The position numbers and the translations under genes were made by a program. The notes under the pieces were generated by a model that had not been told where the DNA came from, made no database searches, and saw nothing but the letters and a program-made list of their open reading frames with translations. From Octopus vulgaris (Eukaryota): a stretch of 64,000 nt of DNA. The stretch covers positions 79,422,001-79,486,000 of the forward strand of contig OX597827.1 in NCBI GenBank assembly GCA_951406725.2, given 5' to 3'. The first letter of the stretch is position 1; each line of letters starts with the position of its first letter. Shown here in pieces: positions 37,444 to 63,687 of this stretch.

Positions 37444-39840
37444 CTGTGGAACTGGTGGCAATCGCCTAGGTGTCGTTGAGAATTTCCATTCATTGGCCAC
37501 CTGTTCCATTTCTGGGTAATACGGGCTTTTAGGTTTAATTGACTGAAGATTTCGGCTAAATATCTCTTCTGCATTTCTGGTTATTGCAACTGGATTGTTA
37601 GTCTGATACAGTATTTGTCTCATCTCAGTCTGAGAGAGAAATTTTGGGTTGTGTGCTGTTTCAGGGGCACTATTGATGTGATTAATACATCTGAAAACAC
37701 ACAGTGTTATTGACACTACAATAGCCACAGATAGTATTACAGCTGCTGCTACAATGATAATTATCCAAGTCATATTCAGGTTGTTACCAGCCTGTGAGTG
37801 GACAACAGTCAACATTGGAGATGTATCATTACTAACAAACAGTGTTAGTATGATAGCAGTTGTTGCTGATTGAACTGGAGTACCACCGTCTTTCACTATA
37901 AACTGCAGCTCATATGTTCCTGCATCATTTTGGTAAACTGTGCGAGAGAAAGATAACACAGCAGTGTGTGAGTTCACTGTAAACAGGTTTTTATCATTGG
38001 ATTTCAGTATTCCATATGTGAGGAAAGCATTGTTTCCAGTGTCTTTGTCAGATGCTTTCAGAATTGTGATGTCCTTCTTACTGTGTGGATGGTAGTGGAC
38101 ATCGAGATTGTAAGGGTCATTATTAGGAAATATAAAATATGGAGCATTGTCATTTTTATCTAGAATTTCTATAAGAATATTGGCAGTGTTATTCAGTGAT
38201 GGTGTCCCATTATCTTTGACTAAAACATGTAAATTATAGATGTCTTTTACTTCCCGATCTATTGGTTGTGATGTAGAAATGAATCCATATTTTGTCAGTT
38301 GGAAAGGAATGTTATCATTGTTGTTATCATTGATGATAGAATATGTAAGTTGGCCTCCATCTCCAAGATCAGGGTCTGTAGCATTGATGAAGCCAATAGG
38401 GAAGTCAACTTTCTGGTTTTCATAGGTGAGGAATTGGAATGTCTCTTTGGTAAAATGTGGCTCTACATCATTGACATCAGTTACTTTGACAGAGAACTGT
38501 TTCTTAGTCTTTAGTGGAGGTGATCCCATGTCATGACATACAATCGACACAACATAATGGTCTATAGTTTCTCTGTCAAGAGGTTCTTTCACCAATATTT
38601 TATATTCTTTAGAACCCATATTAGAAAGCTGGAACATTTTATGGTGAATATTACATTTAATTTGTCCATTAGGTCCACTATCAGTGTCAATGACCATAAC
38701 ATAAGCTATAAAACTCCCAATTTTACTTGCTTCTGAAATAGCAGCAGAATTCACTGTTAAAGGTGATACAAAATCTATATTTATTGCTGGAGCATTATTT
38801 TGATTACTTATTACATTGATTATTAGAGTGGCTTTAGAACTTAAAGATGGTTTTCCTCTATCCTTGGCTTGAATATATAATTTATATTTTTGCTGTTTAT
38901 TTCTGTAAAAATCCTCATTTAGGAATATCTCTCCATCTGGTTTCAGTTTGAAATGGGTTTTGAGATAAGAGCTTGTTTTTTGATAAAAGTTATATGTGAT
39001 ATTACCATTTTGACCTGAATCTAAGTCTGTGGCTGATAAAACAAAAACAGGAGAAGATGTATGATGTGTATCACTGATTGTGATGTTGTACATCTGCTGA
39101 GAAAACATAGGTCTATTATCATTGACATCAATAACAGATATTTCTATGTTCAGAGTATCTTCTTTGCGAGGAGAACCACTATCCTTTGCAACTAACTGTA
39201 ACATATAAGTGTCTTTTAATTCTCTGTCTAACTTACCTTCTAGTGCTATTTTAAGTATTTTCATTCCATCAAACTCTTCGAATATTGATAATATAAATGT
39301 ATTACTTTTATCTTTCAGTTCATATGTGATGTTAGAATTGAAAATACCAATGTCTTTATCCACAGCATTTGGTATTGATTTTGTCGAACCTTTTGCTTCT
39401 GTTTCATAAAATTCTAATTTAATTTGATCTTCTGGAAACTCTGGTTGGTTATCATTAATATCATCAATTATTATCTTTATCTTTAATATTCTTATGAATG
39501 TTTCTTCTTTCCTAACAGCTACCTTGACAATTTTAAAACATTCTTTTTTGTAAATGCATAGAGATTCAGCATCAAGTGTGTGTGTAGTGTATAGTTTCCC
39601 AGAGTTAGTGACATTGAATAAGTGAGATCCCATTGACATTGTTCTTTGTAACTGTGTAAATGTAATGGGAGTTCCCTGATGATGTTTGAGAGATTGAGAA
39701 AAGTTAGAATCAGCAGCAATGTCTCCTATGTAAGTGTGAGGACTATCTTCTTCGTTGACATGGTAAGTGATATCTACACTTAGGACACTGTGTAGTAAAG
39801 TATGTAGTAGACAGATGAATAAGCCACTCTCTTTTGTCAT
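37444..39840 (-). CDS. Protocadherin gene B, large exon (signal peptide, EC1-EC6, TM, proximal tail)
   Basis: 799 open codons with six cadherin repeats and a TM helix; donor CCA CAG|GTAAGA. Joined to 33611-33770 and 33258-33337 it gives a predicted 878-aa protein. Confidence 0.95.
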
Positions 39841-42195
39841 TGTGATTCTTCACAAATCCTGCAGACTCTCAGTATCTTGAAAAACAAATGGAAATTCTAT
39901 TATTAGATTAAAACGGTCAACTTGAATGATCACTTCACATTTATTATATCTACCCACAATATTTGTAGTATCAAATCAATATTTGGGAATTTGTGTAGCC
40001 CCTCTTTTTGCAAAAATAATATTGCAAACTATTTTGGAAATTTATATCATGAAGTGGTGAATGAAACTAAAATTTAATAAAATTTATTATTTTTTAATTC
40101 GAAATAATGAAATACTGATGAATTAATGCAAAATTAGCACCAACCGAGTTGTGAGTATGACACTATTGAATGACCAAAATATTAACATAGCTTATGTAAT
40201 TCAGAAATAAAGTATAATTAATGTTGTGTTAACTTACTTGCGGCTTACATTGTTATTTGATTGGAATTTTATCACCAAAAGTTATCTCTTACTCAACTGA
40301 AGGATACCTAAAGCACATAATAAATAAATTACATCTCTTGAAATTCATATTGCTTTAAACTACATATAGATTCCTTTTAAAATAATCTAAGTGAATTTGA
40401 TGAAGTCACCAACCTCAACATAATGATGAGAATTTATGTTCGAATTAATTTGAAGTCAAGACAAAATCCATAGGCAAGACGAAATATGCTTACATTAGAA
40501 TTCAAATTTTATGAGTCTATATAAAATATTGTGTATGAAGTAGATGGAAGAGGGTGTATTATCATTAAGGCTACATCCTATTGTGGTTCTTTACAAAAGC
40601 ATCTGTGAGACACAGTCTCCATTCTTACTGAGTTATCACATTTATACTCTCTTCATATAAGTATTTTGCATATAAGTATATTTTCTTTTTGCTTAAACTT
40701 AAACATGTATTCACCATTCTATCTTCAAATAACAAACACAAAATTCAATTCAGTTATTCATCATCATCATCATCATTTAATGTCCACCTTCCATGCTGGC
40801 ATGGGTGGGACGGTTTGACAGGAGCCAGCCAGGCATAAGCCTGTACCAGACTTCTGTGACTGTTTTGGCAGGACTTTTACAGCTGGATGCCCTTCCTAAC
40901 CCCAACCACCCAGTTGTGTGGACTTAATGTTTTTTATGTGGCACAAGCGAGGTCAAAATTTTTACAGCTGGATGCCCTTCTAAATACCAACCACTTTACA
41001 GTGTGGACTGGATGCTTTCTAAGTGGCACCTGCACTAACAGGGTACTGAGTAGCCTGCAAGACAAAAATCTTTTGAGAGGAGAGCAGTTTTTGGAGGAGG
41101 TGATCTTGTGCCAGATGATGAAAGGTTATAGTGAGACAGAAACAAGTTTCTTGCTGTAGAGGAGGTACATGGTTACCCGGCTGGGGTGGGGGGGAGAAAG
41201 AAAGACAGAGAGAGATCAGGAATGAGGACAGAAACAGGTGTGCTGCTGCAAAGGAAATACATGGTTACCCAAAGGAGATACATGGTTGCCCAACCTGAGG
41301 GAAGTGCAGGAGGAAAAAGAGAGAGAGAATGGGAGACATCAGGATAGAGATAGTGGCAAACTGCAAGGCATACTCACAAGGACAAGGATCAAGATAAAAA
41401 TGAGATAGTCAAGTAAAGGCAGAGAGAGATATAAATGATGGTACGTGCAAAGGCATACCTTTGAGGTTTGAAGGTCATAATATAAGTGGCAGGATATTAC
41501 CTAAGAAACATGATTAGAGAGTACAGACAGAAAGTGAGTGGTGAAAACCTGGGTATAGAGTGGGAGGGAGGAGCTACTGGATAGCAATGATACAGAAAAA
41601 ATAGGGCCATAAGGACAGAATTGGGGAGTGAGAAGTAGGCATAGTGCATGAAGGAGGAAATGTGAGGAAAAGAAGAGATGTAGAGAGTTAGATTGGTTTG
41701 TTGCGGTAGGCTGTGTGAAAAGTTTTCTTCTGTGTAAGAGGAACACACAGATTGGGGGCTATTGGATATCAATAATACAGAGAAACAGGGACATGAGGAC
41801 AGGATTGGGGTGTGGGAGGTAAGCATAATGCATGAAGTGGAAATGCAAGGAAGAGAAGAGATGTAGTTTGGTTTGTTGTGGTAGGGTGCGTAAGAAGTTT
41901 TCTTGTTATGTGTGGGTGGAACAACTAGCGCTTATAGCACTCAGTTTCACTGACATGGGCAGGTCTTCTCAAGAAACTCATATTGTCTAGCAAAAGTATT
42001 TTCTGATGTTCAGATATTGAAAAATCTATACAGCTTGTTATTTAGTAAATTAACTTCGTGCTATGTATCTCTTTAATTGAAATGAATATTTATGAGAATA
42101 CATTATATCAGTTATTTATTTTACGATTAATTTAGAATCAAAATTATCAAACTCTTGTTGAAATTCTGCAATGGCTTTTATTATTTTATCATTTA

Positions 42196-44625: not shown

Positions 44626-44775
44626 CTACATTGGTTAATCCTTTTCCCATTTTAGATTCTGAGAGAGAGATACATTTTGGCGTAGCCTGCTTTTGCTGCT
44701 ATAGTAGTAGTATTTAAATAGCTGCTTGTTGATGTAGTAGTTTGACAATAGCTGTGTGCTGGTGTGAATCAGGGA
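44626..44775 (-). promoter_or_regulatory. Putative leader exon / promoter of gene B
   Basis: Donor CCAATGTAG|GTATGT; TGTGAATCAG at 44763-44772; donor-proximal cattggttaatcc matches the paralogous cattgtttaatc. Confidence 0.6.
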
Positions 44776-45256
44776 GTGGGAGGTAGAATCAGGACCATGA
44801 ATGCTTAACTAATGATGTGTTTATGTGTGTGCGTGTATATGCACAATATATTATTATGTATAATTGATAAACATTAATGTAAAAATGAGGATAACATCAA
44901 CTGACTTTAACTGTATAATTTGCGTAGATTCACATAATGCATTTCCAATTTTACAAAAATTCTATCTTTTATTTTATGTTTTGAGTTTATATTATTTATC
45001 TATTGTACTTAAAAAAAATTTAGACAGTATTTAATTTTAATTGAAATATCAAAAGTTTTAAAGTAAAAATAAATAAATAAATAAAATATGCTTAATTGAA
45101 TCTCAAAAGAATTTTTTCCTAAAATGATCAAGTTTAAATTTTATGACCTTTGAATATTATCTTAAGCAATACTCATTATTGCTTGAAACAAATAATTTAT
45201 TTCGAAGTTCTTTCTATTATTAATGAGAACCAAACAAGCAAGATATAATGACTACA

Positions 45257-45336
45257 CTACATAGACTCAGAATAGATTTCTTGTTCTTGTTCATTCTTTG
45301 GTGTCAGAGGTATGTTAGGCTGGTAGTTGCTATATT
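45257..45336 (-). pseudogene. E3 exon of a headless protocadherin unit (frame intact)
   Basis: ttattttccag|AA TAT...ATG TAG; 80 nt; (E)YSNYQPNIPLTPKNEQEQEIYSESM*. No large exon belongs to this unit; functional status uncertain. Confidence 0.75.
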
Positions 45337-45469
45337 CTGGAAAATAAGGGGAAGCTACTTAATGATGTTTTAATTTGTTTCCATGACAAATATTTGAATA
45401 TATCTAGGTTATGTTTCTTCATGGAAATTTTTATTTGCTGTTTGAATTTTTTGTTTATTTCATTATTAC

Positions 45470-45626
45470 CTGATGCTCCCATTGCTTGATTTGTAATGTC
45501 TCCTTTATTCCAGACATAGTTCCATTCTTTGTTCCAGGGTAATGTCTCACTAAGGTTGTTTGATGTTTCAATACTACCATAACATTTTTGATCAGTAGGA
45601 CTCATTGCCATGTTCTTATCTTAATG
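45470..45626 (-). pseudogene. E2 exon of a headless protocadherin unit (stop at codon 2, in-frame ATG at 45611)
   Basis: tttttacag|CAT TAA GAT AAG AAC ATG GCA ATG...GGA GCA TCA G|GTAATA; 157 nt; H*DKNMAMSPTDQKCYGSIETSNNLSETLPWNKEWNYVWNKGDITNQAMGAS. Confidence 0.75.
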
Positions 45627-47289
45627 CTGTAAAAAATATACAGATGAGGTGAAAAAAAAATTACTTGAAATGTTTCTATTTGGAGAATGGTTCATTATGC
45701 AATCATAACTCAATATTCAATACAACAGTATTACTCTTGGGCAGGTGGTCAATGGAAAATGTGAAGAAACCCATTGGATTGATTATATTTATGATACAAA
45801 GTTCCAGCTTGTGTTACACACTGTCACATTGTTTTTTGCCTGAGGGCTATGCCAAGGGCACACATATCTGTAGAATATTCGATCCCTTTTATGCTAATTC
45901 AATTTTTTGGTAGTTCAGTTGATAGAACAAATGAATACACATTGCCAAAGATGATAGAGATCATATTGACATATGGTTCATATTAAATACTTGATATATG
46001 AAAAACAGTAATTATGCTAGTCAGCCAAGAATGAATATTGTAGAAATGATTAGTTTTCATTTGACATTAGTGGATTTTTATATTTTACTACATCTATTTT
46101 TGTCATATTATTTTTATAGATATTGTTGAAATAAATATTGCAATCACCCAACATAATTATTTCTAAATTAGACTCAAGCCTACAAATTTTGTGGAATAGT
46201 ACAATCAAGTAAATCAAGTTTGTTTGAGATAGTTATTTTATTGACAATGGAAGGATGAAAAACAAAGTAAACCTCTATACAATTTGAACTCGTAGCCCAA
46301 TGATTTAAGTGTTTAGCTTGGCAGTCTACTGTAGGTGACATTACACTCCCCACCAATAATGAGGGTACTGGTATAGTTGACTGATATAAAATATAGGAAA
46401 TATTTGATTATATCAATTTTGTTGACACTACATCCAATCTGTTCAATGAGTTTAAAGAATATGAGTAGTTATTTAAAGAAAAGTACTTTTTAGAATAATT
46501 ACAATACTGTTACTAGAACATTTAGAGGAAAATAAATTATTAAATAAAATTTGATGAAAAATTTTATAAGTTGCATTAGTGAAACAGTTTACTGAAAGTA
46601 GCCAATTTCAAAACAATAGTTACATTTACATAACCATGTTACACTATTTTGTATTTATTATATTTTACTAGAATTAAAATAAAGCAATATGCAGTGTCAA
46701 CTTAACTTTGAAGTTTTAATGCCTGATATCTATATTAGAGATATTTACTTGTTGTTAATTAACTTAAATATGGATAGATTTTGGCCTGTTTTGTCATAGG
46801 CCATGAGTGTAACTTAACAGCATAACTATCATTTTCCACTATCTCAATACTTTAAATAATAACCATGAACTTATTGTATTTAGTGCTCAGGAACACTACA
46901 ACTTGTTGGAAAAGGGTAAAGAATGAATCAGAAAATAGCAATAAGCCAAGTGAAAAAAGACAATAATGATAAAGGAACATGCATAGTATTCAGGGTAAAT
47001 CACAAAAAGACAGGAAAGTGCACAGTAAAAGAGCCATAAAAAAGAAGGGTGAACAGGCACATCAGGAATAATGTTAGTGATTATTGAATGACACTACATT
47101 GAATGACACCAGATTGGATGTAGTTAGGATTTTTGAATGACAATGTCTTAACTGCTAACTACTGATGCAATAGTTTGTTCCTTATTTTGACAATTCAGGA
47201 TGCGAAAATTCTTCTTCGGAAAGTCACAGGTGCGGTGCTGTTTTTTGATTTTATAAGTATATCCTTGGTTTGTAGAACAACCACTGTAC

Positions 47290-48887
47290 AAGCACTGTAC
47301 AGGGATACTGTTAGTAATGTGAGGGTTGGCAATGGGTATAGTGAAGAATTCTGGGTAGAAGTAGGGGTTCACCAAGGATTAGCCCTCAGACCCCTCTTAT
47401 TCATCATAGTCCTCCAGGCAATAACAGAGGAATTCAAGACAGGCTGCCCCTGGGAGCTCCTCTATGCTGATAACTTTGTTCTAATAGCTGAATCACTACC
47501 AGAACTAGAGATGAAGTTTCAAGTGTGGAAGCAAGGTCTACAATTTAAGGGCCTCAGAGTCAATCTAGCAAAAACCAAAGTCATAGTAAGTTGGAAGATG
47601 GACAAATCACAAACCCCCTTCAGGTAGATGGCCCCACTTGATCTGTAGAAAAGGCATAAGTAGAAACTCCATGGAAGATAGTTTTTGCATGTGGGGCAAT
47701 AAATGCTGAAGATGTACAGGAAACAGATTGCATCACATGCTAGGGGGAGAAACTAGAAGTAGTTAATAGCTTCTACTACCTAGGCAACCAAGTCTGTAGT
47801 GAGGGTGGACACTCTGAGAGTGTTGCTACTAGAATAAGAATAGCCTGGGCAAAGTTCAGAAAGCTCCTACTTCTGCTTGTAACAAAGGGCTTCTCACTCA
47901 GGATAAAAGCTAGACTGTATGATGCATGTGCGCGAACAGCCACACTACATGGCAGTGAAACATGGGCCATGACTGTTGAGGACATATGTAGGCTTTAAAG
48001 AAATGAAGCTAGTATGATCCACTGGATGTGTAATGTCAGTGTGCATGCATGACAGAGTGTAAGTGCCCTGAGAGAAATGTTGGACATAAGAAGCATCAGA
48101 TGTGGTATGCAAAAGAGATGACTGCTCTGGTATGGTCATGTGCTAGATATGAATGAGGAGAGCTGTGTGAAGAAGTATCACTCCCTAACAGTGGAAAGAA
48201 CCTGTGGAAGAGGGAGACTCAGGAAGATATGGGATGAGGTGGTGAAGCATGACCTTCGAATGTTGACCTGCACAGAGGCAATGAGAGACCTTTTGAGATA
48301 TGCTGTGATTGAGAAGACCTAGCAAGTAAAGTGAGATCACAGCCGTGGCTTATATCAGTGTCGCATAATCAGCCCATTTAAAAGTACACTTGAATTGTTG
48401 GGCAATACACTACACTTGAGAAGACCTGTTGAATTAAGTAAAAGTGAAATCAAAATGGAAATCATAGTTGTGGCCGATGTCAGTGCTGCCTGACTGGCAC
48501 CATGCTGGTGGCATGTGATAAGTACCATTCAAGTGTGAGTCGATACCAATGCCACCTGACTAGGTGCCTGTGCCGGTAGAATGAAAATAGCACCACCCAA
48601 ATGTGGTCATTGCCAGTGCCTCCCAACTGGCTCATGGGCCAGTGGAATGTAAAAAGCACCATCTGAATGTGGTTGATGCCAGTGCTGCCTGACTGGCACC
48701 TGTGCTGGTGGCATGTAAAAAGCACCCACTCCATTCTCGGAGTAGCTAGCATTAGGGAAGGCATCCAGCTGTAGAAACTTTGCCGTATCAGATTGGAGCC
48801 TGATGCATCTTACTAGCTTGCCAGTCCTCACTCAAACCATCCAACCCATGCCAACATGGAAAACGAACGTTAAATGATGATGATGAT
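47290..48887 (+). mobile_element. 5'-truncated decayed RTE LINE
   Basis: VEVGVHQG..PLLFIIVL, GCPWELLYADN, GLRVNLAKTK, GRGRLRKIWDEVV; tandem 3'UTR repeats and (GAT)n tail. Confidence 0.9.
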
Positions 48888-49069
48888 AATATATATATAT
48901 TTGTATGAATAAGTATATTTGTTTGTGTTCATGTATGTGTGTGTGTGTGTGTGTGTGTGTATGAGAAATGTCTCAGTTATTATCCTGTTTAGAAGCTATG
49001 AAAAGAATTTTGCTCTCCAAAGATTATTTTAGATGAGAAAAGTCAGTATATATATAGAAATAAACTTAC

Positions 49070-49207
49070 CTTCATTGTTTAATCTTTTGTTGTTGTTCTA
49101 AATGAAGAAAAACATGTATCTCATAGGTGTCTTCTTCTGTATCTGCTGCTGCTGTTCACAAATTGCAGTCATATTTCAAAAAATAGTTCCATTGAAATGT
49201 GAATTCA
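49070..49207 (-). promoter_or_regulatory. Leader exon / promoter module of the headless unit
   Basis: Donor CAATGAAG|GTAAGT; ttaccttcattgtttaatc is identical to 59609-59627; shares acatgtatctc; degenerate motif TGTGAATTCA at 49198-49207. Confidence 0.62.
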
Positions 49208-50348
49208 TAAATGTATTTAAAAGGTTTTTTAAAATGTATTTAATATGTGAATGTATGTGTGGTAATGTGTATTTGGGATTGCTTTTAATATTTCGTTTGT
49301 AATAAGGCTAAATACATTTGATGCGTTAACATTTCTACCAACAAAACCTATACAATAATAAATAAATGCAATGATATTTAGATAAAATACTATATTTGAA
49401 AGATAATTTTAATGTTAAGAAGAAGAATGGTGTAGATTCATTTTCCTCTACTTTACCAATATCTTTGCAAAAGGCATATCTACTCATCTACGTTTATATA
49501 AAGAGTGCCTTCTATAATTCTCATGTAAAAAATTATTATGTCCATAGTTTCAAAATTATTGAGCTTGATTCTATGATTTTTTGACATTTTATTTTAGTGC
49601 CATGTTTAGGCATTATCTTCTTAGTGTGAAATCTCAGTTTTAATTACAGGGGTGGTGTAGAGTTTGAAAATGTGGAAATTCAGCTGTCAGAGGGAAGAAT
49701 ATATGTGTGTGTGTATGTGTGTACAGAAAGTCATGTTTTGCTCCTGACAGGAAAAATGCCATCAAAAGAAAATATATATTCTTTTCTACTCTAGGCACAA
49801 GGCCCAAAAATTTTGGGAGGGGCCACTCGATTTGATCGATCCAGTATGCAACTGGTACTTAAGTTATCAACCCTGGAAGGATGAAAGGTAAAGTCAACCT
49901 CGGTGGAATTTGAACTCAGAACCTAAAGACTGCATACTATTTCAGTAGTTGAAGCTCTAGAAGAGTTAAGTACCTTGTCTTAGGATACTTGTATTCCAGT
50001 TTCAAGAAAAGAGTTGCTGCAGATTTGGACTCTTAACTATATACAGCCATTTATTTTTATTTATCAAAATATAGCTTTGCTGAAATCTATTAGTATTATC
50101 AATGTATAATATAAATTCTAATACTGGAAATATCTACATAATTAAAAAGTAGTGAAAACCTCACCAAAATTAGCATCAGCCCTATGACCTTCATTAGAAA
50201 ATTATAACTTAAGTATTTGTTAAAGAGTTTTCAATAAAAGATAAATTGAAAACAGTGCTATATGGAATGTTATTAATACACTATTGAATTATTTAAGGGG
50301 TTGATTCTTTGGTTACTAAAAAGTAAATCTGACGTTACTGTGTTTGCA

Positions 50349-50428
50349 TTATACTGGCTCCAGATACGTTTCTTGCTCTTGTACAGTCTTTGGGGTAGGG
50401 AGTATGTTTGGTCGGTAGTTGCCGTATT
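50349..50428 (-). CDS. Protocadherin gene C terminal exon E3
   Basis: ttttttcag|AA TAC...GTA TAA; (E)YGNYRPNILPTPKTVQEQETYLEPV*. Confidence 0.88.
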
Positions 50429-50770: not shown

Positions 50771-50930
50771 CTGATGCTCCAGATGTTTGATGTGTAATAT
50801 CTCCATCACTCCAACCACATTTCCGTTCTTTATGAGAAGATAATGTATCATTCAGATTGTTTGATGTCATAATACCACTGCTATAACATTTTTGTTCAGT
50901 TGAAGTCATTGTTTCATCCTCATTGCAATG
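50771..50930 (-). CDS. Protocadherin gene C cytoplasmic exon E2
   Basis: tttttcatggtag|CAT...TCA G|GTAAAT; 160 nt; HCNEDETMTSTEQKCYSSGIMTSNNLNDTLSSHKERKCGWSDGDITHQTSGAS. Confidence 0.88.
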
Positions 50931-51118
50931 CTACCATGAAAAATAGAAAATGATATAAATTGAAAATATTACATTCATTATTTATAACATACAATTTATA
51001 TTAATCTTTGATATTCAGCTCAATTCAGATAATCAGGGTGAGAATATTTTTAATTATCAAAATAATTTGTTTGCTTTTATGGTTAGATATTCTTTATAAC
51101 CCTTTTATATATGGATGT

Positions 51119-51356
51119 TTAACCCTTTTGTTACCAGCCCGGCCAAAACCGGCTCTGGCTCTGTAGTACGAATGTCTTGTTTTCATAAGTTTTTCATTAA
51201 AATATACCACCAAACCTGAGTTGCAATTTATGTTCCTAACACTAGCTTAATGATAATTAAATTATTTTACTAAATTCTTTGTTATATTTAAAATATTTAA
51301 AAATTGAAAGAAACACAGAGCATCTCAAAATAAATACAGTAACGAAAGATGTTTAA
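51119..51356. mobile_element. Probable TTAA-type MITE
   Basis: ttaa-cccttttgttac ... gtaacgaaag: partial inverted ends. Confidence 0.5.
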
Positions 51357-51888
51357 TGTTCAATGAGATGTTTCTTATTTAATATATCAGAATTTTTTTT
51401 CTTGCTAGCATGTACTGATTCATTCAGCCATTTTATATTTGCATGAATTATTAGAGTAATTATTTTGTAGTTCAATATTGTACAGAATACTACTTCAACA
51501 ATGGATATAAACTCTATTAAGATTAATGAACTCTTGTCTGTGTGCAAGTGACAGATCCAGGGGGAAAATACTGCCAGTATTAGTAGTTCAATGTCTTCAC
51601 AAATAATCTATATCTATAATACAATAATATACATGCATACATATATAAGGGGGTGCTGAAAAGTTTCTGTTTTTAAGGGCATCACAAGAGGCTTGGTTGA
51701 AGGCCCAGCCTCTCAGTTCTTTTACAGGACTTAGAAAAACTGAAGGATTACACTCTTGGAGTAGTTAGTGTTAGGAAGGGCATCCAGCTATAGAAAACAT
51801 GCCAAATCAAATAACCTGGTGAAGCTCTCCTGCTTACCAGTTTCAGTCAAACCATCGAACTGATGCCAGTATGGAAAGTAGATGCTAA

Positions 51889-51926
<38 letters not shown>

Positions 51927-53025
51927 ATGTAAGTATGTATGTATGTATCTTAGTCATGGAATTGGAATGTCCATGATATTTTAGAGGTTTCTAAAATTGG
52001 TGAGAAGGAGGAAGATATTTTTAAAAGGTAGACCTGGCTTCAGTGCTCATCACGCTGTAGACTTCACTGAGCACACAAGTATTCAGCAATGGTGTTAAAC
52101 CAGGCAGCAGTTTTAGTCTACCACTCAGGTAGACCATAGCAAAATTTGGACTTAGAATGCAAGACACTGGAATAAATACCACAGGTCATTTTGTTCAGTA
52201 TTCTAATGGCTCTGTCAATGCGTCACCAGTAACTTTTCATCTTGGTGGTTGATTCTTTTCAACAATAATGATGAATCATTTGGATGCATTAAGGGTTTGT
52301 TTTCATAAAACATTTTGTAACTAATGTATTGTAATCTGTTATATTATTAGATGTACTTTATTAATAATCATGAATGTAGGTTCTTTACTATATAGCTCTC
52401 AGAATACTTAAATATTTCATCACTGGATTCAGGCTTTGAAACATTAAAACTATTTCAGGCTTTAGCTTTATAATTATTAGTTAAAAGCAAGGAATGAAAA
52501 ATATCCCAATATATTTCTTTTAAAATTAATTTGTTACTTTGATTTCAAATTTTGGCAAAAGGCCAGTAATTTCGGAGGAAAGGTAAGTTGATTACATCAA
52601 CCCCAGACTTTAACTGGTAATTATTTTATCGACCCCAAAATGATGAAAGGCAAAATTGACCTCAGTAGAATCTGAACTCAGAACATAAAGACAGACATAA
52701 TGCTGCTAAGCATTTTGCCTGGTATGTTAATGATTCTGCCTGCTCATCGCCTTATTACTTCATATTATATTAATAATCATTTCATTATTTCTCTACCAAT
52801 CTGCATGTGCACTGGAAGCCTTCCTTAAAAATTTAAGTGTTTAATCAATGTATTATTGGCACAAATTTTCTAGACCTTAATTGAATCCTTAAATTAAAAC
52901 TAATATAAGACTTTTAAAGTAATAGAGCCAAAATCAAGCTAAGATACTATTCTGTTTAATGGTAATGAATCAAAGATTCATTCTGAAATGTTTCCAATGA
53001 TGCACATTACATACTGAAGTATAAT

Positions 53026-53322
53026 CTCTGGAAGCACTCCGTCGGTTACGACGACGAGGGTTCCGGTTGATCTGAATCAACAGAACAGCCTGCTCGTGAA
53101 ATTAACGTGTAAGTGGCTGAGCACTCCACAGACACGTGTACCCTTAACATAGTTCTCAGGGATATTCAGCGTGACACAGAGAGTGACAAGGCCGGCCCTT
53201 TGAAATACAGGTACAACAGAAACAGGAAGTAAGAGTGAGAGAAAGTTGTGGTGAAAGAGTACAGCAGGGATCACCACCATCCCCTGCCGGAGCCTCGTGG
53301 AGCTTTTAGGTGTTTTCGCTCA
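53026..53322 (-). mobile_element. 5'-truncated SINE with 13-bp target-site duplication
   Basis: GC/CpG-rich insert flanked by exact actgaagtataat at 53013-53025 and 53323-53335. Its right end resembles the reverse complement of 8880-8960. Confidence 0.75.
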
Positions 53323-53829
53323 ACTGAAGTATAATAACACTATCATAGCTGTAAGAGTTCTGTCATTTTAAAATTATAAATACATACAGACATTGGAGCT
53401 AAAAGTATGAATTCTAATTACTGTTTTGTCTTTATAAGAGAGACTGAATTTTGCATATTATTATTATTTCGTTGGCATACTACCATGTACTTCAAAGTCA
53501 ACATTGGGATTACATATTTACTTTCTTAATGACAAGCAACACTATCGATTACCTCACTTTAAATTATTACATTCTCTGATAAGTAATTCATAATCCACAT
53601 CGTAACCTGGACACAGGATTGCTTGACTAGCTAGAAATAGCTAGAAACATCCTTCAATTCACATTACATTCTTTTAGAAACTGAACAATTTGGTCCTGAG
53701 AAAAAGATCTGACCACAGATTTTTATGTTCCCATCAGGGTTGACAAATGCTTAAACAACATCAAAAACACACTACTCCTCTTTGTAAATATAACTTCATA
53801 AAAAGTATTTTTTAAACAGTAATACATAC

Positions 53830-56238
53830 CATTGGGACTGGAGGTAATTTTCTGGGGGTAGTTGAGAATTTCCATTCATTAGCTGACTGCTTCATGTCTG
53901 AGTAATAAGAGCATTTGGGGTTTATTGATTGAAGATTTCTGTTAAATATGTCTTCTGCATTTCGAGTTATTGCAACAGGATTGTTAGTCTGATACAATAT
54001 TTGCCTCATTTCAGTCTGAGAGAGAAATTTTGGATTACCATTTGGTGTAGGGGAGTTATTGAAGTGGTTAATACATCTAAAAACACACATTGTTATTGAC
54101 ACTACAATAGCCACAGATAGTATTACAGCTGCTGCTACAATGATAATAATCCAAGTCATATTCAGGTTGTTACCAGACTGTGAGTGGACAGCAGTCAACA
54201 TTGGAGATGTATCGTTACTAACAAACAGTGTTAGTATGATAGCAGTTGTTGCTGATTGAACTGATGTACCACCATCTTTCACTATAAACTCCAGCTCATA
54301 TGATCCTGCATCATTTTGGTAAACTGTGCGAGAGAAAGATAACACACCAGTGTGTGAGTTCACTGTAAACAGGTTTTTATCATTGGATCTCAGTATTCCA
54401 TATGTGAGGAAAGCATTGTTTCCAGTGTCTTTGTCAGATGCTCTCAGAATTGTGATGTCCTTCTTACTGTGTGGATGGTAGTGGACATCGAGATTGTAAG
54501 GGTCATTATTAGGAAAGATAAAATATGGGGCATTGTCATTTTTATCCAGAATCTCTATAAGAATGTTAGCAGTGTTATTCAGAGAAGGTGTTCCATTGTC
54601 TTTGACTAATACCTGTAAATTATAGATGTCTTTCACTTCTCGATCTATTGGTTGTGATGTAGAAATAAATCCATATTTTGTCAGTTGGAAAGGAATGTTA
54701 TCATTGTTGTTATCATTGATGATAGAATATGTAAGTTGGCCTCCATCTCCAAGATCTGGGTCTGTAGCATTGATGAAGCCAATAGGGAAGTCAACTTTCT
54801 GGTTTTCATAGGTGAGGAATTGGAATGTCTCTTTGGTAAAATGTGGTTCTACATCATTGACATCAGTTACTTTGACAGAGAACTGTTTCTTAGTTTTTAA
54901 TGGAGGTGATCCCATGTCATGACATACAATAGATACAAAATAATGGTCTATAGTTTCTCTGTCAAGAGGTTCTTTCACCGATATTTTATATTCTTTAGAA
55001 CCCATATTGGAAAGCTGGAACATCTTATGATGAATATTACATTTTATTTGTCCATTACGTCCACTATCAGTGTCTGTAACCATAACATAAGCTATAAAAC
55101 TCCCAATTTTACTTGCTTCTGAAATTGCTGTAGAATTCTCTGTTAAAGGGGATACAAAATCTATATCTATAACTGGAGCATTATTTTGATTACTAATTAT
55201 ATTGATAATTAACATGGCAGTAGAACTTAAAGATGGTCTTCCTTTGTCTTTTGCTTCAATATATAATTTATATATTTGCTGCTTATTTCTGTAAAAATTA
55301 TTATTTAGGAACATCTCCCCATTTGGTTTCAGTTTGAAATTTGTTTTAATGTCAGACCTTGTTTTTTGGTGAAAGTTATACGTGATGTCACCATTTTGAC
55401 CAGAATCTAAATCTGTAGCTGATAAAACAAAAACAGGAGTGGTGATATGATGTGTATCACTGATAGAAATATTGTACGTTTTTTGAGAAAACATAGGTCT
55501 GTTATCATTGATATCTGTAACAGAGATTTCTATGTTCAGAATACCTTGTTTTGGTGGAGAGCCACTATCTTTTGCAAGTAACTGTAACATGTATTTGTCT
55601 TTTAATTCTCTGTCTAATTTTTCTTCAAGTATAATTTCCAATATATTCATTCCATCAAACTCATTAGATATAGATAATGAGAATTTCTTACTTTTGTCTT
55701 TGAGTCTATATGTGATCTTTGAATTAAGACGACCAATATCTTTATCCACAGCATTTGGTATTGATTTTGTTGATCCTTTTGCTTCCGTTTCACCAAACTC
55801 TATTTTAATTAGATCCTCTGGGAACTCTGGTTGATGATCATTAATATCTTGTATGATGACTTTTATCTTTAAAACCTTGATAAATGTTTCTGCCTTCCTC
55901 ACTGCAACTTTAACAATTTTAAAACATTCTTTGTTGTATGTACACAAAGACTCAGTATCCAATGTTTGTGTAGTGTATAGTTTCCCAGAGTTGGTGACAT
56001 TGAATAAGTGAGAACCACTAGCTGCTTTCCTTTGTAGTTGTGTAAATGTAATGAGAGTGTCCTGATGATGTGTAAGAGGATATGATAAGTTTGAGTCAAT
56101 AGCAATGTCTCCTATATAGGTTTGAGGAGTGCCTTCTTCATTGACATGGTAAATGATGTCTATTGAGACAATGAGAGACAGTACTTGGTATAAAATACAT
56201 ATCAGCAGACTTGTCCTTGTCATTTCTTTGTTTTTCAT
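53830..56238 (-). CDS. Protocadherin gene C, large exon (signal peptide, EC1-EC6, TM, proximal tail)
   Basis: 803 open codons (the second Met at 56223 is an alternative start); acceptor ttatttttag at 56261; donor CCA ATG|GTATGT. With E2/E3 the predicted protein is 882 aa. Confidence 0.95.
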
Positions 56239-59200
56239 TTATCTTCAAAATTAACAATACCTAAAAATAAGAAATAAATTACTTTAAAATAGCATAAAAT
56301 AAGCAATATCACTATCAAAAATATTAGTTTTTAAACTCATGTGTTTTAAAAATTGAAAGTATTTGTTGGTGTAGAAGAATCAGTTCAAATATATATTTTT
56401 CATTTGTTAATCACTGTATGCAGGAAATGAAATGAATTGTTTTGCCTATAAATGGCAACAGAGTGTATTTTCAATCAAATAATTATATAGTATAAATTAT
56501 AGCATAGAAGTCTTGTCATACGGACATACTTTTGAGTACTTACTACTAAATCACTAAACCTATATAAGACAAAAGGGGGACTTTGTGTATGAAGTGAGAT
56601 GAGAAAAAAATTCAATGGACATAGCAGTGAATATCTGGATTTGTTGTTATTCTTTAGCTCTAAGATGGCTTTGAACAAGCAAATCTATGATGAAGGCATT
56701 CAAGCCATGACCATCTATTCTTTTATTTAGGAATACTGTTCTCTAGATTACATTATCTACTGTAAGCTTTTAAGACTGTAGGATGTATTTTAGTGTAGAT
56801 TTGGCTGCTAGTTCTAGAATGGACAACCATGTAGTGATTCCCTCATTGGTTTTAAGAATTTCTAAGATGCAGAAATGGAAATGAGGGCGTTGCTGATTGT
56901 GACAGAGGTATCATAGAAACTGATGAAAAAATCCAAAGCAGTGAAGTTAAATTCTAGTGCAGCATTGAGATTATTGATGAAAAATGTAGGTGGGAAATGA
57001 TGGTGCTGGAGATGAAAATTGAGCAGTGATCAAAGATGTTTTGTAAGTTTGACAGGCCGTCATTGTGAGGATGAAAGTAATGGGATTTAACATCCATGCC
57101 AGTGCTGCCTGACTAGCACCTGTACCGATGGCATGTAAAAAGCCCCATTCAAACGTGGTCAATACCAGTGCCGCCTGACTGCCACCTGTGCCACTGACAT
57201 GTAAAAAGCACCATTCAAGTGTGGTTGATGCCAGTGCTGCCTGACTGGTTCCTGTGCTGTTGGCATGTAGAAAGCACCCTCTACACTCTTGGAGTTGTTG
57301 GTGTTAGGATGGGAATCCAGCTGTAGAAACCTTGCCAAATCAGATTGGAGCCTGGTGAAGACTCCTGGCTTGCCAGTCCCCAGTCAAACCATCCAACCCA
57401 AGCCAGCATGGAAAGCGAATGTTAAATTATGATGATGATGATGGTGAATGAAGAGAATTTCGAAAGAAGAATAGATGAAAAAAACTGATGGTGTGATTAG
57501 TGTTTGTGATGTTGGGGACAGATAGGAAACAAAAGCTGACAAGATTCTTTAGATGTTTTGAGAGAATTTAAATTAGAACAACTATATGTGGATATGATAA
57601 GGTGACTAAAATTGTTAGGTGTGTAAATTTGGAAGGGGAAATAGACAGTGGAGGTTTTGGAGTAAAATTAACAGCAGTGGGAGAAAGTAATGGGAAAGAT
57701 GATTAAATAACAATAGTAAAAATAATTTTGTATTGGGATAAGTAAGTTCTTTTGGTATTTTTCTAGCATGCATTGAAGAACTTGAGGTGTTCTTCTAGAA
57801 GTTTAAAAACTCCAAGTTGTAGTGGCTAAGAAAGGTGTCCATCTAGTAGCTGATGTTTTTGAAAGACAAGTTAAATATGAAATGGAGTGTTGCCCAGTTG
57901 CCATCATATGCAAGTCGTAATCACATCTTTTGTTCAAAATGGGCTGATATGATTGGAGTCCCTAATTTTAATAAGTACTGGAATGGATTCTTTGGTGCCT
58001 TCAGAAGAAGTTGAAATCAGCAATGCAAGCTATGAACCACTAATCTAGTTTACAGTACTACAAATGGTTAAAGTCACGAGTTGTTCTTGCTTTACAGTAC
58101 AAGAGTCTTTGTCATGGACACACTATGATGACTTTGATAGGATATAAACTGCATACATTTATATGTTGTATAAAGGTTGAGTGGATGTCTGTTTCTCTAT
58201 TGTTCCACATATCAGTATGTGAAAGCACATAGTCTTGTGATTTAGGTATTAATCTCATACTCATCTGGTCATAGGTTCAATTTTTGGACTGGGTTGCATG
58301 TTGTGTTCTTGAGCAAAGCACTTCATTTCACATTGCTCCTGTTCACTCAGCAGAAATGAGTGCCAGTGACAGCTGGAAGTTAACTCTGCAATGAACTACC
58401 ATCCACTACTCTCAATTACTTAAATACCCCAGAAGCCTGGATACACTCTAACCTAGTGAACCTGTTGGTTATCTTGTAGAATTGACTTTAATTTCTGAAA
58501 CTGCCATGTTTACATATCAAATAAAATAATGAAATATTTTGGTCATTTTATGCATGTGCAGTGTTATCAAAATGTTGCTTAAGGAAATGGATAGAATATA
58601 TAAATAAGTAAAAGTTTTTTCTCCAATTGTGCAAGTTATATTTGAATCATTCTTATGTCATTTTAAAAGTATTATAATATACGTAGCCATTTAGCTTACT
58701 TTCTGTAGGTTTCTAGTTGTACAGTTTACTTTCTTGTGACAAGAATGTATATGACTACATCGAAGTCAGAGCTCAACTTAGATAAGTCACAAATTTTTCC
58801 TGCAGTCATAATCTTCTCAAAATTAATGTAGACTTATGTATATGTCTTTTATTCATCTTAAACATATCAATATAAATTACAGTATCATATGTAATACGTG
58901 GATGCTGCTAAGTGAGACATTTTCTATTTGTATATTTTTACGACAGGCATGGTCTATAAACAAGTGATATAATTAACTGAAAAAATGAGGGTATTAATAG
59001 TTATTTAAATGATTGCATCAAAAAAGATTCTGTTCCAAAACTGTAGCCATGAAGTTATCATTATAAATAAATATTGTACCATATAACACTTTAGCTTGTT
59101 TTTCATAATGTGCATTTCTGAAAGTAGATTTAATAATTCTTTATTTTCATTTTCTATTTACTTATTTTGATAAAGACTGAGATATTTCATTGATTCCCTT

Positions 59201-59612: not shown

Positions 59613-59745
59613 CTTCATTGTTTAATCCATCATTTCCATAGTATGTAAGTAGTGACATGTATCTCGATGTTGTGTTCCGGTGTAACTGCTACTGTAGTTG
59701 TGCACTTAGTTATATGTTAATGAACTGCAGTTGTGAGTCAGATGA
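59613..59745 (-). promoter_or_regulatory. Putative leader exon / promoter of gene C
   Basis: Donor CAATGAAG|GTAAAT; TGTGAGTCAG at 59732-59741; homologous to the modules at 49070, 44626, 31914 and 13465. Confidence 0.65.
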
Positions 59746-60885
59746 TAAGAAGTAGAACCTTTAGATAGGAATTTGGGTTGTATGCAAGTGCATGTATAAT
59801 AAATGTGTTAGAGTCAGTTCTTTTCAATATTGCTTGTTTATAAGTTAAGAAATTTAAACACGAATGCCATGTTTTTCAATATCAACTTCTACGAAATATC
59901 TTGAAACTAAAATAACATAATTGAGTTTTGAACTATGTAAATTTAATTTTATAATTCAAATTTTAGCTTATCATTTTGTTTGGAAATTGTTTTATTTTCT
60001 GGTATTTTTTGTGTTTTTATAACTGTTGCAATAAATTTAGTAAAATGTTTTAAAAATAAACATAATTTAAAAATTGCAAATTTAAAAATATGTTTTTGAC
60101 AAAAGTTTAAGAATTTTACAATATATTATGCTAATGTTGCTTTGTTCTCAGTTAATTTATTTAGAAACATACATTCATACATAAGTAATTATATGAAATT
60201 TTGCTAGTTTGAATGAACTGAACTATTTGTTCTTTGAACTTTTGAGGAGCTGAGTATTCCACCAACACGTGTCCCTTTAGCATAACCTTTAAGAAAAACA
60301 ATGGTATGTCATGGAGTGATGATAAGACTAGATCTTTAAATTATAAGTATAAGCCATCTGATAGTGTTCTACATAATTTCTGCCAACTAAATCTTCTTCT
60401 CAAGACTTGGGTTGATGCAAGGCTAAGGTAAAAGATACCTACCCAAGACGCTACACTGTTGGCCTGAACCTAAGACCTTACAATAGTGAAGGTAACTTCT
60501 TAACCATTCAGCCATAAAGAAGACATGCAGTATTCTCATGTTGGCATATATATTGGCCACAAACAGATTTCTATTTTACTGTAAATGGTATTTAATATGA
60601 ATCCTTATAATCAATTCTAGCAGGGGCATAAAACTTTAATCATATGACAAAAGTCAGATATAGATATTAGGTAACATAAACTTAGCTCTTATTAGGAGTG
60701 TACCTAGTTATTATAGTTTTTAGTTAACATAAATTTTAATAATAAAAATGCATATAAATATGGAGGATTTACATTATTGTATGTTATTTATGTTATTATC
60801 AAATCTGTGCAACTTGCACTAAAGCTGGCAATGATTTTTCTTCTGTTCATTTGAATGATAAATCTTTGCTAGAAAGAATCTAAGA

Positions 60886-61355: not shown

Positions 61356-61388
<33 letters not shown>

Positions 61389-61460
61389 TGTATATGATAT
61401 GCTTAAAAATGCCAGTCATTAAATTATTAGATAATAGTTCAGCAATTGCAAATTAACATG

Positions 61461-61540
61461 TTATACAGGCTCTAAATACGTTTCTTGTTCCTGTGTACAC
61501 TTTGGTGTTGGTGGTATGTTTGGTCGATAGTTGCTGTATT
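61461..61540 (-). CDS. Terminal exon E3 of protocadherin gene D (large exon not in window)
   Basis: tattttcag|AA TAC...GTA TAA; (E)YSNYRPNIPPTPKCTQEQETYLEPV*. Confidence 0.85.
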
Positions 61541-63687
61541 CTGAAAATACATAAACATGGTTTATAATTTGATGTGAAATAGATTTATGAGCACAATTTC
61601 ATTTTTCTTTATAAAAGGTACTAATATTGCAATACTATACTTTTAGAAAATAAAATAATTTATTTTTCAGTGTTACTGCTAACTAAAGTTTAGTTTGTTA
61701 TGGAAAAAATATATAACTTTACATTATAGGCATATCATTGGAGAATATTAAGGCAGCTTTTGGAATAAATGATAATAAGGTAAATGATAAAAATATGCCA
61801 TGTATAAAATGAATAATATAAGGTGGATGTTTGATGGTTAGGATAAAAAAAGTTATGAATTTGGTGCAAATAAAGTATCACTATTAATTATTCAATTCTA
61901 TTAGGGAGAGAATAGTTTTGGGGCTTTAAAATGCATACATAGATAAGTGTGTGCTAACATGCACTCACACACATGAAATCATGCAAACATTTTTGTGTTA
62001 GTCAAAAGAGGTGGGGCATATCTATGAACTTTGAAGCACCTCTCAGACTGATGAGATAAATGCAAATTATGTCCGACCTGAATGTCTTCAGATCAATATC
62101 TGTAGGGAAAATGAGTTGGAACAGGGAATCCAATGACCTTGTCTGAAAGCTTACAATATTGTTAATTTGATAAAGGTAGCTGTGTGCTAGGTAGTTATTG
62201 TTTATTTTATTGGCCTCAAATAGATGAAAGATGACTTGAACCCTAATGGAATTCAAACTCAGAAAAAAGAAGCTGGAAATTAAGTACAGTAAAGCATTTG
62301 GCACAAACTCAGTGCTTAAATAAATAATAAAAAAGCTTTGGTAAAGGGAAAACAAAAGGAAAGATTGATCTCTTTTATCTATTTTTTGGTAACTTTAGTA
62401 CAAACAGAAAATATTGAAACATGATAAATAATCACAGCTTGATTTGATTGATAAAGTTATTTAAGGTCTGCATTATTAAGGTGTACTGCTATCAGGAGAA
62501 GTGAAAGTGAAATAATTAAAATTATTTCATGAAAAGTAGGATTATAAGTGTGATTACAATGGATATTGTAAAATATTTGTTTACTCAATAAGTTTCAATA
62601 AGCTTCTGATTACCATTGACATCCAAAACAAGTTTATAATTTAAATGAGGCTCCTTTATATTGGTACAATACTACGAAATTGAACAGAGACTACAAAAGA
62701 TGAAAAATTATCAGGTATGATTAATAAATACTATTTTTAAAAATGACTGCAATATGGTGAGTAGAGAAATCAAATCTGGCTGATCCTTTTTTCATCATGA
62801 TTGTTTAATACAGCTGGTTAACTTATTTTGAACTTGTTTAAAGAAGAAACTAAAGACTGGTAGTGATTAGAAAACTGAATGTTCATAACGAGACTCTTTG
62901 TAAAGAATATTTATGCTAATTACCTCTTAACTGAGCATTTTAAATTCAACTCCTAAATAATAGTTAATTAAGCAACTTAAAGAAAATATTTCTTCCTGTT
63001 CATGAAACAACCATTAGAGCGGTTAACTCTGGCTGGCTCATACTGAAATTTGTGAAAGAATATAATAAAGGGAATATTGCTACTAGCTGAGCAGTAAGAA
63101 GTTTGCTTTCCAGTCATATGTCTCCAAGTTCAACCCCACTGTTATGCCATATTATGTAGAAAGATTGATAATATTTTTCTTAATAAGTAGTAATCTTGTT
63201 ATATTTGAGTTGGTTGTAGTTAAATAACTAAGATACTTTCTTGTCTGAATATAGTTGCAGAAATAGATAAGGTTAAATTTTCTTCATGGCTACGTAGTCT
63301 AAGTTCAACTCTATTGCACTGTACTTTGGGCAAGAGTTTTCTAATTTAGTCTTGGGTCAACTAATACATTGTGAGTAGAATTTGGTTGACAAAAAATGTG
63401 TAGTAGCCTGTCATATGTATCTGTATCTAGTGGTGCAAAACAGACTGAGATGCATCCCTTTATATTAACAGGTTAAAATAACCATTTGATAATTAGAGTC
63501 AGGCAACTATCAAACTGAATGAACTATCAAGGGTGATACTATAAACTAAAACTCTTGAAGGTAGTGCCCCAACAAGACCTTAGTTCAGTGACCAGAACCA
63601 ATAAAAGAATGAAAGAAAAAAAATATTACATTAGTTTTATCTAATAATATTTTAAAATCTTTTGAATCCTGATTCATTTTTAATTAC

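Follow-up and report, generated by a model that had tools for sequence, protein, structure and literature searches.

Introduction

[quoted passage not shown] The protocadherins of octopus are described, in the accounts consulted, as complete gene duplicates that have no exons in common, and fragmentary protocadherin frames have been noted in squid clusters (PMC9068888). An octopus neuron has a choice among well over 100 protocadherin genes. A related phenomenon is the read-through fusion of adjacent genes (cis-SAGe or FuTAG), for which Type I and Type V patterns of intergenic splicing have been distinguished (PMC6862657). For octopus protocadherins, read-through is already in print in one methods line, according to which read-through transcripts fused protocadherin genes in a long-read-based annotation (Styfhals 2022; PMC9712504). 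Our search returned no publication on cephalopod protocadherin read-through as its subject; the isoform annotations in the supplements of PMC9712504 and PMC9699675 may already include the form reported below. Among the matches listed for the octopus polycistronic literature, no title concerned chained protocadherin RNA.

A protocadherin unit without an ectodomain exon

The analysed window comprises 64,000 nucleotides of Octopus vulgaris DNA, in which three adjacent units, C, psi and B, lie on the minus strand. Psi, between the intact protocadherins C and B, consists of a leader donor (49070, AG|GTAAGT), a 157-nt exon E2 (45626-45470, with AG and GT splice sites) and an exon E3 (45336-45257, with an AG acceptor and a TAG stop); it lacks the ectodomain exon that is present in the 13 other tail-bearing units of the subcluster. 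Rechecking in the sequence confirmed all of these coordinates and the canonical splice sites, as given in the initial annotation. The three elements are homologous to those of the neighbouring genes in alignment and by HMM (E 1e-10, 7e-27 and 3e-20 for leader, E2 and E3), with order and orientation kept, and the acceptors of E2 and E3 score 9.6 and 11.8 bits, within the range of the paralogs.

The reading frame of E2, as annotated, contains TAA at codon 2 and an ATG at 45611, from which 73 codons are open through E2 and E3; E2 is 3 nt shorter than that of B, C and D. The ATG had been considered special, but comparable in-frame ATGs occur in 2 of 13 paralogs (codon 6 of the intact gene E, codon 8 of C). 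Likewise, the frame-keeping 3-nt deletion is present, but length changes at the same spot are common in intact paralogs, whose E2 measures 148-160 nt. Pfam holds no family matching either E2 searched, and protein searches with E2 against proteins of 27-88 aa and 89-2000 aa gave no match at E 0.01, which is weak evidence. Rfam returned a single sub-threshold SCARNA7 match, on a (TG)n tract, taken as chance.

Of the 16 leader-like elements, 15 carry a TGA(C/T)TCA motif at a distance of 107-143 nt above the donor; psi is the sole one without it, which bears out the degenerate promoter motif noted before. The disabling lesions of psi are thus three: the absent ectodomain exon, the TAA at codon 2 of E2 and the absent promoter-like motif.

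The gap between leader and E2 measures 3444 nt and contains no N, compared with 5.8-13.7 kb for the same interval in intact units. No relic of an ectodomain exon was detected across it by nhmmer (best E 3.7) or by protein HMM (top match at E 0.013, and on the other strand), in keeping with the reported absence of that exon. The reverse-transcriptase relic described there was recovered (Pfam RVT_1, E 6.8e-10) as part of a 5'-truncated LINE on the plus strand, antisense to the genes (47263..48908), with a short-repeat 3' tail and copies that are 65-82% alike; the label RTE stems from the first reading only. Since a 10-bp, target-site-like direct repeat flanks the relic (47253-47262 and 48909-48918), the LINE is likely a later insertion and not a recombination scar; recombination between LINEs was considered as the cause of the exon loss and rejected on the same ground. 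The introns of psi can no longer be aligned to those of the paralogs, so that the ends of the deletion are unmappable.

In Octopus bimaculoides, two database models (P0124 and P0128) lead from the tail of C through psi E3 to the start of B with no ectodomain between them. These models are automatic and also skip most of another ectodomain. As far as gene models can tell, this agreement with the ortholog suggests that psi lost its head before the split from O. bimaculoides. The fused database models covering the subcluster of psi are P0124, P0128 and P0130.

Splicing of psi onto gene B

Transcription was assessed in four RNA-like runs (X5, X8, X13 and X14) from assembled contigs only, in which rare variants are dropped. 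The RNA status of the runs is a tool's guess, supported by GT-AG joints and by zero depth over the non-repeat intron bins of C and D. Blank cover in the contig tables is unreliable, the leader of C being blank in one table and covered in another; the same holds for the blanks at the D E2/E3 contig in X5 and at the C leader in X8 and X14. Run X17, which carries another organism label and brings the runs used to five of the 24 listed, illustrates that missing cover proves nothing: the psi E2 bin has a depth of 0.03, yet 49334-49553 and unspliced E3 are covered.

In three of the four runs (X5, X8 and X14, from three studies), a contig of 1408-1410 nt joins 49799-49070 to psi E2 and E2 to the ectodomain/transmembrane exon of gene B (37447..39875, minus strand; ATG at 39840), whose acceptor at 39875 takes psi E2. 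The two splices, 49070>45626 and 45470>39875, are deduced from the contig pieces; the first had been predicted in the initial annotation, which was right on the anatomy, on this junction and on the pseudogene default but missed both the splice to B and the long upstream exon. Psi E3 and B's own leader (44626..44890, minus strand; donor 44626; variant motif TGATTCA) are omitted from the contig.

The assignment to B rests on four concordant observations. All 16 listed differences from C carry B's letters, compared with 4-8 of 16 for other paralogs. The geometry also fits: 730 plus 157 nt followed by B from 39875 places record position 1136 at 39627 and position 1408 at 39355, B's exact counterparts. 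Third, 39355 is the point at which B first has a 31-mer in common with a paralog, and thus where the contig is expected to break. Finally, the depth of the E2 bin (9.3, 15.6 and 6.0 in the three runs) agrees with the contig depth multiplied by 157/521 (9.1, 13.0 and 5.7). Psi E3 is listed only in unspliced contigs of depth 2.55-4.9, about one tenth of that of the psi-B contig (2.55 versus 30.3; 3.65 versus 43.3).

The exon that ends at the psi leader donor (49070..49799, minus strand) is represented by a 730-nt contig piece in X5, X8 and X14 and is single-copy in genome G000. The transcribed exon thus starts at least 730 nt above the donor, and the conserved leader relic forms only its last ~100 nt (49165-49070; leader HMM match 49165-49062). 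A 55-codon upstream ORF enters from E2 in B's frame and stops 9 nt before B's ATG, so that no psi-B fusion protein is made; in total, 25 upstream ATGs precede B's ATG in the fused RNA. Among the forms assembled for B's 5' end, the fused one seems to predominate.

Contigs at the C-psi and D-C junctions and probable read-through

Gene C is transcribed, as judged from contigs specific to C, which show 1-2 differences over 469-673 nt. These run through C's own E2 and E3, and their 274-326 upstream letters fit E2 and the end of the large exon (both within 50771..56260, minus strand; ectodomain exon 56260-53830, E2 50930-50771). The last exon and 3' UTR of C (49897..50428, minus strand) reach a SINE-like repeat from the repeat census (49771..49931, no strand assigned), where contigs from the C 3' UTR and from the psi long exon both break. 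On the C side they end at 49897-49901 and on the psi side at 49799, leaving 49800-49896 unbridged. In runs X5 and X8, the C contigs pass AATAAA at ~50061/50055 into the SINE. The depths of C-UTR and psi-B contigs are similar (28.6/30.3, 40/43.3 and 31.3/19), which is weak evidence.

The intact D-C junction has an overlap similar to that between C and psi. The first exon of C (59613..60448, minus strand), an 823-nt piece in run X5 spliced 59613>56260, extends far above the conserved leader and overlaps the D 3' UTR contigs at 60143-60448. Those contigs end at 60143 (X8) and 60135 (X14). An AATAAA at ~60161 precedes these ends by 18-26 nt, in agreement with normal termination. A direct splice from D E2 to the C ectodomain exon was considered and not seen; D E2 (63847-63688) joins D E3 (61540) in three of the four runs (X8, X13 and X14; 61398..63847, minus strand).

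The psi-B RNA likely stems from read-through of C, given that psi lacks the motif, that its exon starts far upstream and that the C 3' UTR enters the SINE at which this exon's contigs break, although C and psi are not bridged on one molecule; contigs can show neither a single molecule nor a start site.

Proposed origin and alternative explanations

Our preferred and, we think, probable interpretation is that psi is a tandem protocadherin copy without its ectodomain exon, likely a pseudogene, whose donor and E2 are spliced onto the B exon in RNA that likely began in C. The default of the initial annotation, a pseudogene remnant with a degenerate promoter, fits the evidence. The broken tail residues and the long tip branch of psi (below) speak for a pseudogene; its omega differs neither from neutrality nor from that of the paralogs, and the E3 match to O. 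bimaculoides hints at constraint. A deletion would have taken the 2.4-kb exon, probably before the O. bimaculoides split, with the LINE inserting separately. Polymerase coming from C may pass C's poly(A) signals and reach the still-strong donor of psi, which lies 1.36 kb after C's last acceptor. This donor would join the next acceptor, that of E2, and the E2 donor would then skip the terminal E3 and B's first exon, as is common in read-through splicing. The psi exons would therefore serve as a non-coding stretch that separates two coding regions, or as B's long 5' UTR, and no useful protein would come from psi itself. B is probably poorly translated from the fused RNA because its ATG sits behind so many upstream ATGs. 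Splice junctions after C's stop would expose the fused RNA to nonsense-mediated decay, and a psi-B depth as high as that of C is not expected under efficient decay.

It is possible, but rather unlikely, that psi serves B as an alternative first-exon unit whose own promoter lies within or close to the SINE or the C 3' UTR, without read-through from C, and that the upstream ORF of E2 tunes translation of B. The psi-B contig itself is compatible with such a unit, B's own motif is a variant, and X5 covers the long first exon of C to 60869 without a D E2/E3 contig, which fits starts inside a neighbour's UTR. However, the family motif is missing in psi, both flanking contigs enter the same SINE at similar depth, and a 5' UTR burdened with 25 upstream ATGs is a poor one.

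We regard as unlikely a more far-reaching model, in which transcription of the subcluster routinely yields chains of several genes in one RNA (D > C > psi > B and so on) and psi is retained as a splice bridge that places B under C's promoter. Each 3' UTR would then exit via the leader donor of the next gene, 0.7-1.9 kb away. An in-frame stop is found just before the ATG in 14 of 14 genes of the subcluster; under the chained model such stops would block polyproteins, and downstream genes would be translated by re-initiation or after processing. If true, this would mean operon-like co-expression of neighbouring octopus protocadherins, unlike the promoter choice of vertebrates.

The initial annotation had proposed a leader>E2>E3 mRNA encoding a 73-aa soluble tail mimic, which we now judge highly improbable. 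The open codons and intact splice sites speak for it, as does an omega below 1 as point estimate on the psi branch (0.46-0.62), but this differs significantly neither from 1 (p 0.11-0.46) nor from the paralog background of 0.28 (p 0.22-0.35), at low power; 13 of the 14 tails were used, I being left out as identical to H. Psi E3 matches the O. bimaculoides models at 22 of 23 amino acids, compared with 3.5-5.1 differences under a rough guess for neutrality (P 0.13-0.04), a sequence-based hint that psi may be under constraint. Against it, contigs splice E2 to B's 39875 in place of the 45470>45336 junction that this protein requires; because of this splicing, the product would be at best a minor isoform. 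Moreover, 18 ATGs precede the E2 ATG in the long-exon RNA, the last reading M-K-H-stop across the splice, and similar E2 ATGs occur in intact paralogs. Psi has lost the YLEP end motif and breaks 9 of 35 near-invariant tail residues, compared with 20 of 465 in leave-one-out paralogs, which are non-independent; gene C breaks 6 of 38 and does not differ from psi (p 0.39). The psi tip branch is the longest among the tails (0.31), and the chance of an open frame after the ATG under neutral drift ranges from 0.05 at that distance to 0.52 at 0.05 substitutions per site.

It is equally improbable that the psi-B contig arose by trans-splicing or as an artefact of the graph or of template switching: the data are assembled contigs and similar paralogs are plentiful, but length and structure repeat in three studies, the pieces end on a canonical donor and acceptor, and the parts are collinear and single-copy. 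That the ectodomain exon is lacking merely in this assembly or haplotype is scarcely plausible: the gap, known here from the assembly and RNA contigs, contains no N, RNA from three studies has the leader spliced straight to E2, the tail is already degenerate, and no ectodomain protein with a psi-type tail occurs among 135 proteins examined, close Octopus clusters included. Least credible of all is the earlier suggestion that psi E2 or E3 is an alternative tail cassette of gene C, given that, despite compatible phases and canonical sites, C contigs run through C's own E3, the psi E2 acceptor is joined to 49070, and neither 53830>45626 nor 50771>45336 occurs in the contigs, from which rare variants would drop out.

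Implications and comparison with known systems

Because exons of a probably dead copy form the assembled 5' end of B and the D-C junction overlaps likewise, adjacent genes may be coupled in their expression, and neighbouring genes in the cluster may be less independent than assumed. Part of what 3'-tag counts of B measure may be the activity of C's promoter. The psi-B junctions are exact, so that the read-through idea is directly testable; if read-through is a mere leak, psi is an ordinary pseudogene, which explains the fused database gene models.

Psi resembles the transcribed unprocessed pseudogenes of tandem clusters in keeping its introns and array position while lacking one coding exon, carrying a stop and having lost a promoter-like motif. 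It differs in that its splice sites are used and divert a neighbour's mRNA, and in that the test for relaxed selection gave no significant result. As in the vertebrate alpha and gamma clusters, the genes form a tandem array with one large ectodomain exon per unit and a conserved motif above each first exon. In contrast to those clusters, each octopus gene has its own tail, and the psi tail exons lie upstream of the next ectodomain and do not serve as a shared tail: among the forms that assemble, rare ones being missed, C uses its own E2 and E3, and psi E2 is entered from 49070.

The octopus read-through of PMC9712504 is alike in that neighbouring protocadherin genes are joined in RNA evidence; the text of its methods treats this as an annotation problem, split by hand, and gives no junctions, abundance or pseudogene bridge. 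A further likeness is to cis-SAGe/FuTAG fusions, in which same-strand neighbours are joined from the upstream gene's penultimate exon to exon 2 of the downstream gene, as described in PMC6862657, so that the upstream gene's last exon and the downstream gene's first are omitted; here, likely three units are involved. Unlike in those fusions, the unit in the middle is headless and probably a pseudogene, no fusion protein results because an in-frame stop precedes B's ATG, and the fused RNA seems to be the chief assembled version of B's 5' end and not a trace isoform.

Organization of the subcluster and of the headless unit

The window (G000:C14:79422001-79486000) contains three protocadherin ectodomain exons that are intact, all of them on the minus strand (gene C, 56260-53830; gene B, 39875-37447; gene A, 11777-9337), together with the tail exons belonging to another unit, D. 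The exon of B contains five Pfam Cadherin stretches, and the starts and tails of B and C are matched in proteins labelled Octopus vulgaris (P0121, P0001). Between C and B lies the orphan unit psi, likewise on the minus strand, with its leader donor at 49070 and its tail exons E2 and E3 at 45626-45470 and 45336-45257; the initial annotation's TAA at E2 codon 2, its ATG at 45611 and its open frame of 73 codons were all re-found. Among 14 units with psi-like E2/E3 in the window and the 200 kb upstream, psi alone lacks the large exon: its gap of 3444 nt, free of N, yielded no ectodomain relic with either DNA or protein HMMs. Some 1.65 kb of this gap is taken up by a LINE relic in antisense orientation that carries a reverse-transcriptase domain; because a 10-bp repeat flanks the relic, it was likely inserted independently of the exon deletion.

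In intact units, leader and E2 are 5.8-13.7 kb apart. All 14 units place the next leader donor 0.7-1.9 kb after the E3 acceptor. Every one of the 14 ectodomain exons shows an in-frame stop, 1-5 codons ahead of the ATG (39852-39850, 56241-56239 and 11748-11746 in the window, and 11 upstream paralogs); a TGA occupies codon -3 or -4 in 13 of them, frequently as ATGA. Shared ancestry may account for both regularities. In this assembly the large exon is frameshifted or broken in three upstream units (G000:C14:79536197-79538600, 79594230-79596650, 79612700-79616100); the tail of one such unit recurs in an O. sinensis protein of 884 aa (P0134), so that alleles or assembly errors may explain some of the breaks. 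Runs of some 25 neighbouring protocadherins, at G000:C14:79175125-79389085 and 80425361-80660027, score identically to one 157-aa query, a similarity pointing to strong homogenisation via gene conversion or to very recent duplication.

Of 16 leader-like elements (window and L008-L021), 15 carry a motif TGA(C/T)TCA at 107-143 nt above the donor; psi is the only one without it, in line with the degenerate promoter motif noticed initially. Its position and its likeness to AP-1 sites make the motif a putative promoter element, and the conserved TGACTCA a candidate for cluster-wide use. A second orphan leader (32115-31902, minus strand, donor 31914) with the variant TGATTCA lies 1.4 kb after the E3 of B. 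The leader belonging to gene A lies near 13625-13465, and the stretch from the orphan leader to A yielded no E2/E3 relic; read-through from B could reach A by way of this orphan leader.

Transcripts joining psi to gene B

Part of the psi E2-E3 stretch is present in 20 of the 24 sequencing runs listed, several guessed to be RNA and none recorded as such. Contigs were mapped from four runs on 44400-60000 and four on 55900-64000, five different runs overall, which behave as RNA, with GT-AG joints and zero depth across non-repeat intron bins. In X5, X8 and X14, runs from three studies, a single contig (1408-1410 nt) runs from 49799, completes its first piece exactly at the donor 49070 and has its far end in a paralogous ectodomain exon. 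This end is that of B, with B letters at 16/16 listed differences from C (other paralogs, 4-8). A leader piece of 730 nt, the 157 nt of E2 and B from acceptor 39875 together match the two listed record positions exactly; the contig end, 39355, falls where B first has a 31-mer in common with a paralog, and E2-bin depths are 9.3, 15.6 and 6.0 against 9.1, 13.0 and 5.7 expected from the contig. The joints 49070>45626 and 45470>39875 were deduced from these lengths, letters, end point and depths, the 730-nt exon (49799-49070) being single-copy. The first joint is the one anticipated in the initial annotation, whereas E2 then continues into B and not into E3.

Among the contigs listed, psi E3 occurs only with its preceding intron (depths 2.55, 3.65, 4.9), and C contigs continue through the E3 of C itself, their upstream lengths agreeing with C's E2 plus the end of its large exon. 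The suggested 73-aa leader>E2>E3 mRNA and the exchange of C's tail for psi E2 or E3 are therefore at most minor; assembled contigs lose rare forms through pruning.

The last ATG of the leader encodes M-K-H-stop across the first splice, and the E2 ATG opens 55 codons in the frame of B that stop 9 nt before B's ATG, so no fusion protein results. The contig has 25 ATGs ahead of B's start, past which scanning would be expected to yield little translation of B; in a read-through RNA from C, the splice junctions that follow C's stop would be expected to invite nonsense-mediated decay.

Origin of the RNA

The start of the psi exon lies 730 nt or more above its donor, well above the conserved leader. 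The 3' UTR contigs of C (X5, X8) run past two AATAAA to 49897-49901, and the psi contig begins at 49799; both break within a SINE (49771-49931), as contigs must at a repeat. Depths on its two sides are alike (28.6/30.3, 40/43.3, 31.3/19), a weak sign, and read-through from C into psi is the simplest reading, the main rival being transcription that starts within or close to the SINE. Psi is probably a pseudogene that is transcribed as part of a C-psi-B read-through RNA. That it serves as an alternative 5' end of B seems rather unlikely. The psi exons apparently form the main assembled 5' end of that gene.

Chained transcription as a rule in the cluster is unlikely. At the intact D-C junction, one X5 contig carries an 823-nt exon (60448-59613) joined to the ectodomain exon of C, and overlapping contigs extend to 60869; within 59613-60869, the first exon of C, at least 823 nt long in this run, overlaps D's 3' UTR contigs. 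Pieces of D's 3' UTR extend to 60143-60201, depending on the run, and are interrupted at two microsatellites and by further short gaps, so that the overlap amounts to ~300 nt across runs. Against general read-through, contigs in X8 and X14 end just past an AATAAA at ~60161; moreover, X5 has lost 16 nt at 60085, below this signal, and this deletion could mark an allele prone to read-through. D splices E2 to E3 normally in X8, X13 and X14.

Constraint on psi and its age

Psi has the longest tip branch among the tails (0.31 substitutions per site) and breaks 9/35 near-invariant tail residues, including three in the YLEP end. In paralogs, 0-6 of 35-38 are broken (pooled 20/465; p 5e-5 versus psi, with paralogs non-independent), and gene C alone, with 6/38, does not differ from psi (p 0.39). 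In a codon branch model of 13 tails, omega after the psi ATG is 0.46 versus 0.28 for the remainder; the estimate is distinguishable neither from 0.28 (p 0.29) nor from 1 (p 0.11). A branch first functional and then neutral would look like this. Under neutrality, the probability of an unbroken frame is 0.52, 0.30, 0.17, 0.09 and 0.05 at 0.05-0.31 substitutions per site, and the open frame is unsurprising unless the whole branch was neutral. Nor is the ATG at 45611 as special as first described: B and D indeed have GTG, but the intact paralog E shares the position of this ATG, and C has one at codon 8.

The fused O. bimaculoides models P0124 and P0128 pass from the C tail through a psi-type E3 to the start of B without an ectodomain between, and in none of 135 proteins examined does a psi-type tail follow an ectodomain. 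Together these suggest that the head was lost before the split from O. bimaculoides, although the models are automatic and omit most of one other ectodomain. Their E3 is identical to that of psi at 22/23 aa, slightly above a rough neutral guess (P 0.04-0.13), and this identity is the best remaining hint of constraint. P0124, P0128 and P0130 (4355-5758 aa; O. bimaculoides/O. sinensis) fuse up to nine protocadherins of the subcluster and are probably automatic joins over read-through evidence rather than real polyproteins.

The initial annotation holds for the anatomy and only in part for the interpretation, a pseudogene being likely and the coding and tail-swap readings not.

Comparison with known read-through

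Cephalopod PCDH diversity has been ascribed to full gene duplication without shared exons, with fragmentary frames noted (Albertin 2022, PMC9068888), and PCDH genes fused by read-through transcripts were split by hand (Styfhals 2022, PMC9712504). The terms searched gave nothing relevant in the text seen of PMC6339937, PMC9699675 and PMC13218726, and no description of the psi-B junction was found in the literature searched, whose supplements may hold one. The event is of a known kind, here with exact junctions: in human genes, the commonest read-through pattern skips the upstream gene's terminal exon together with the first exon of its downstream neighbour (PMC6862657), the same omission as in the splice from psi E2 to B.
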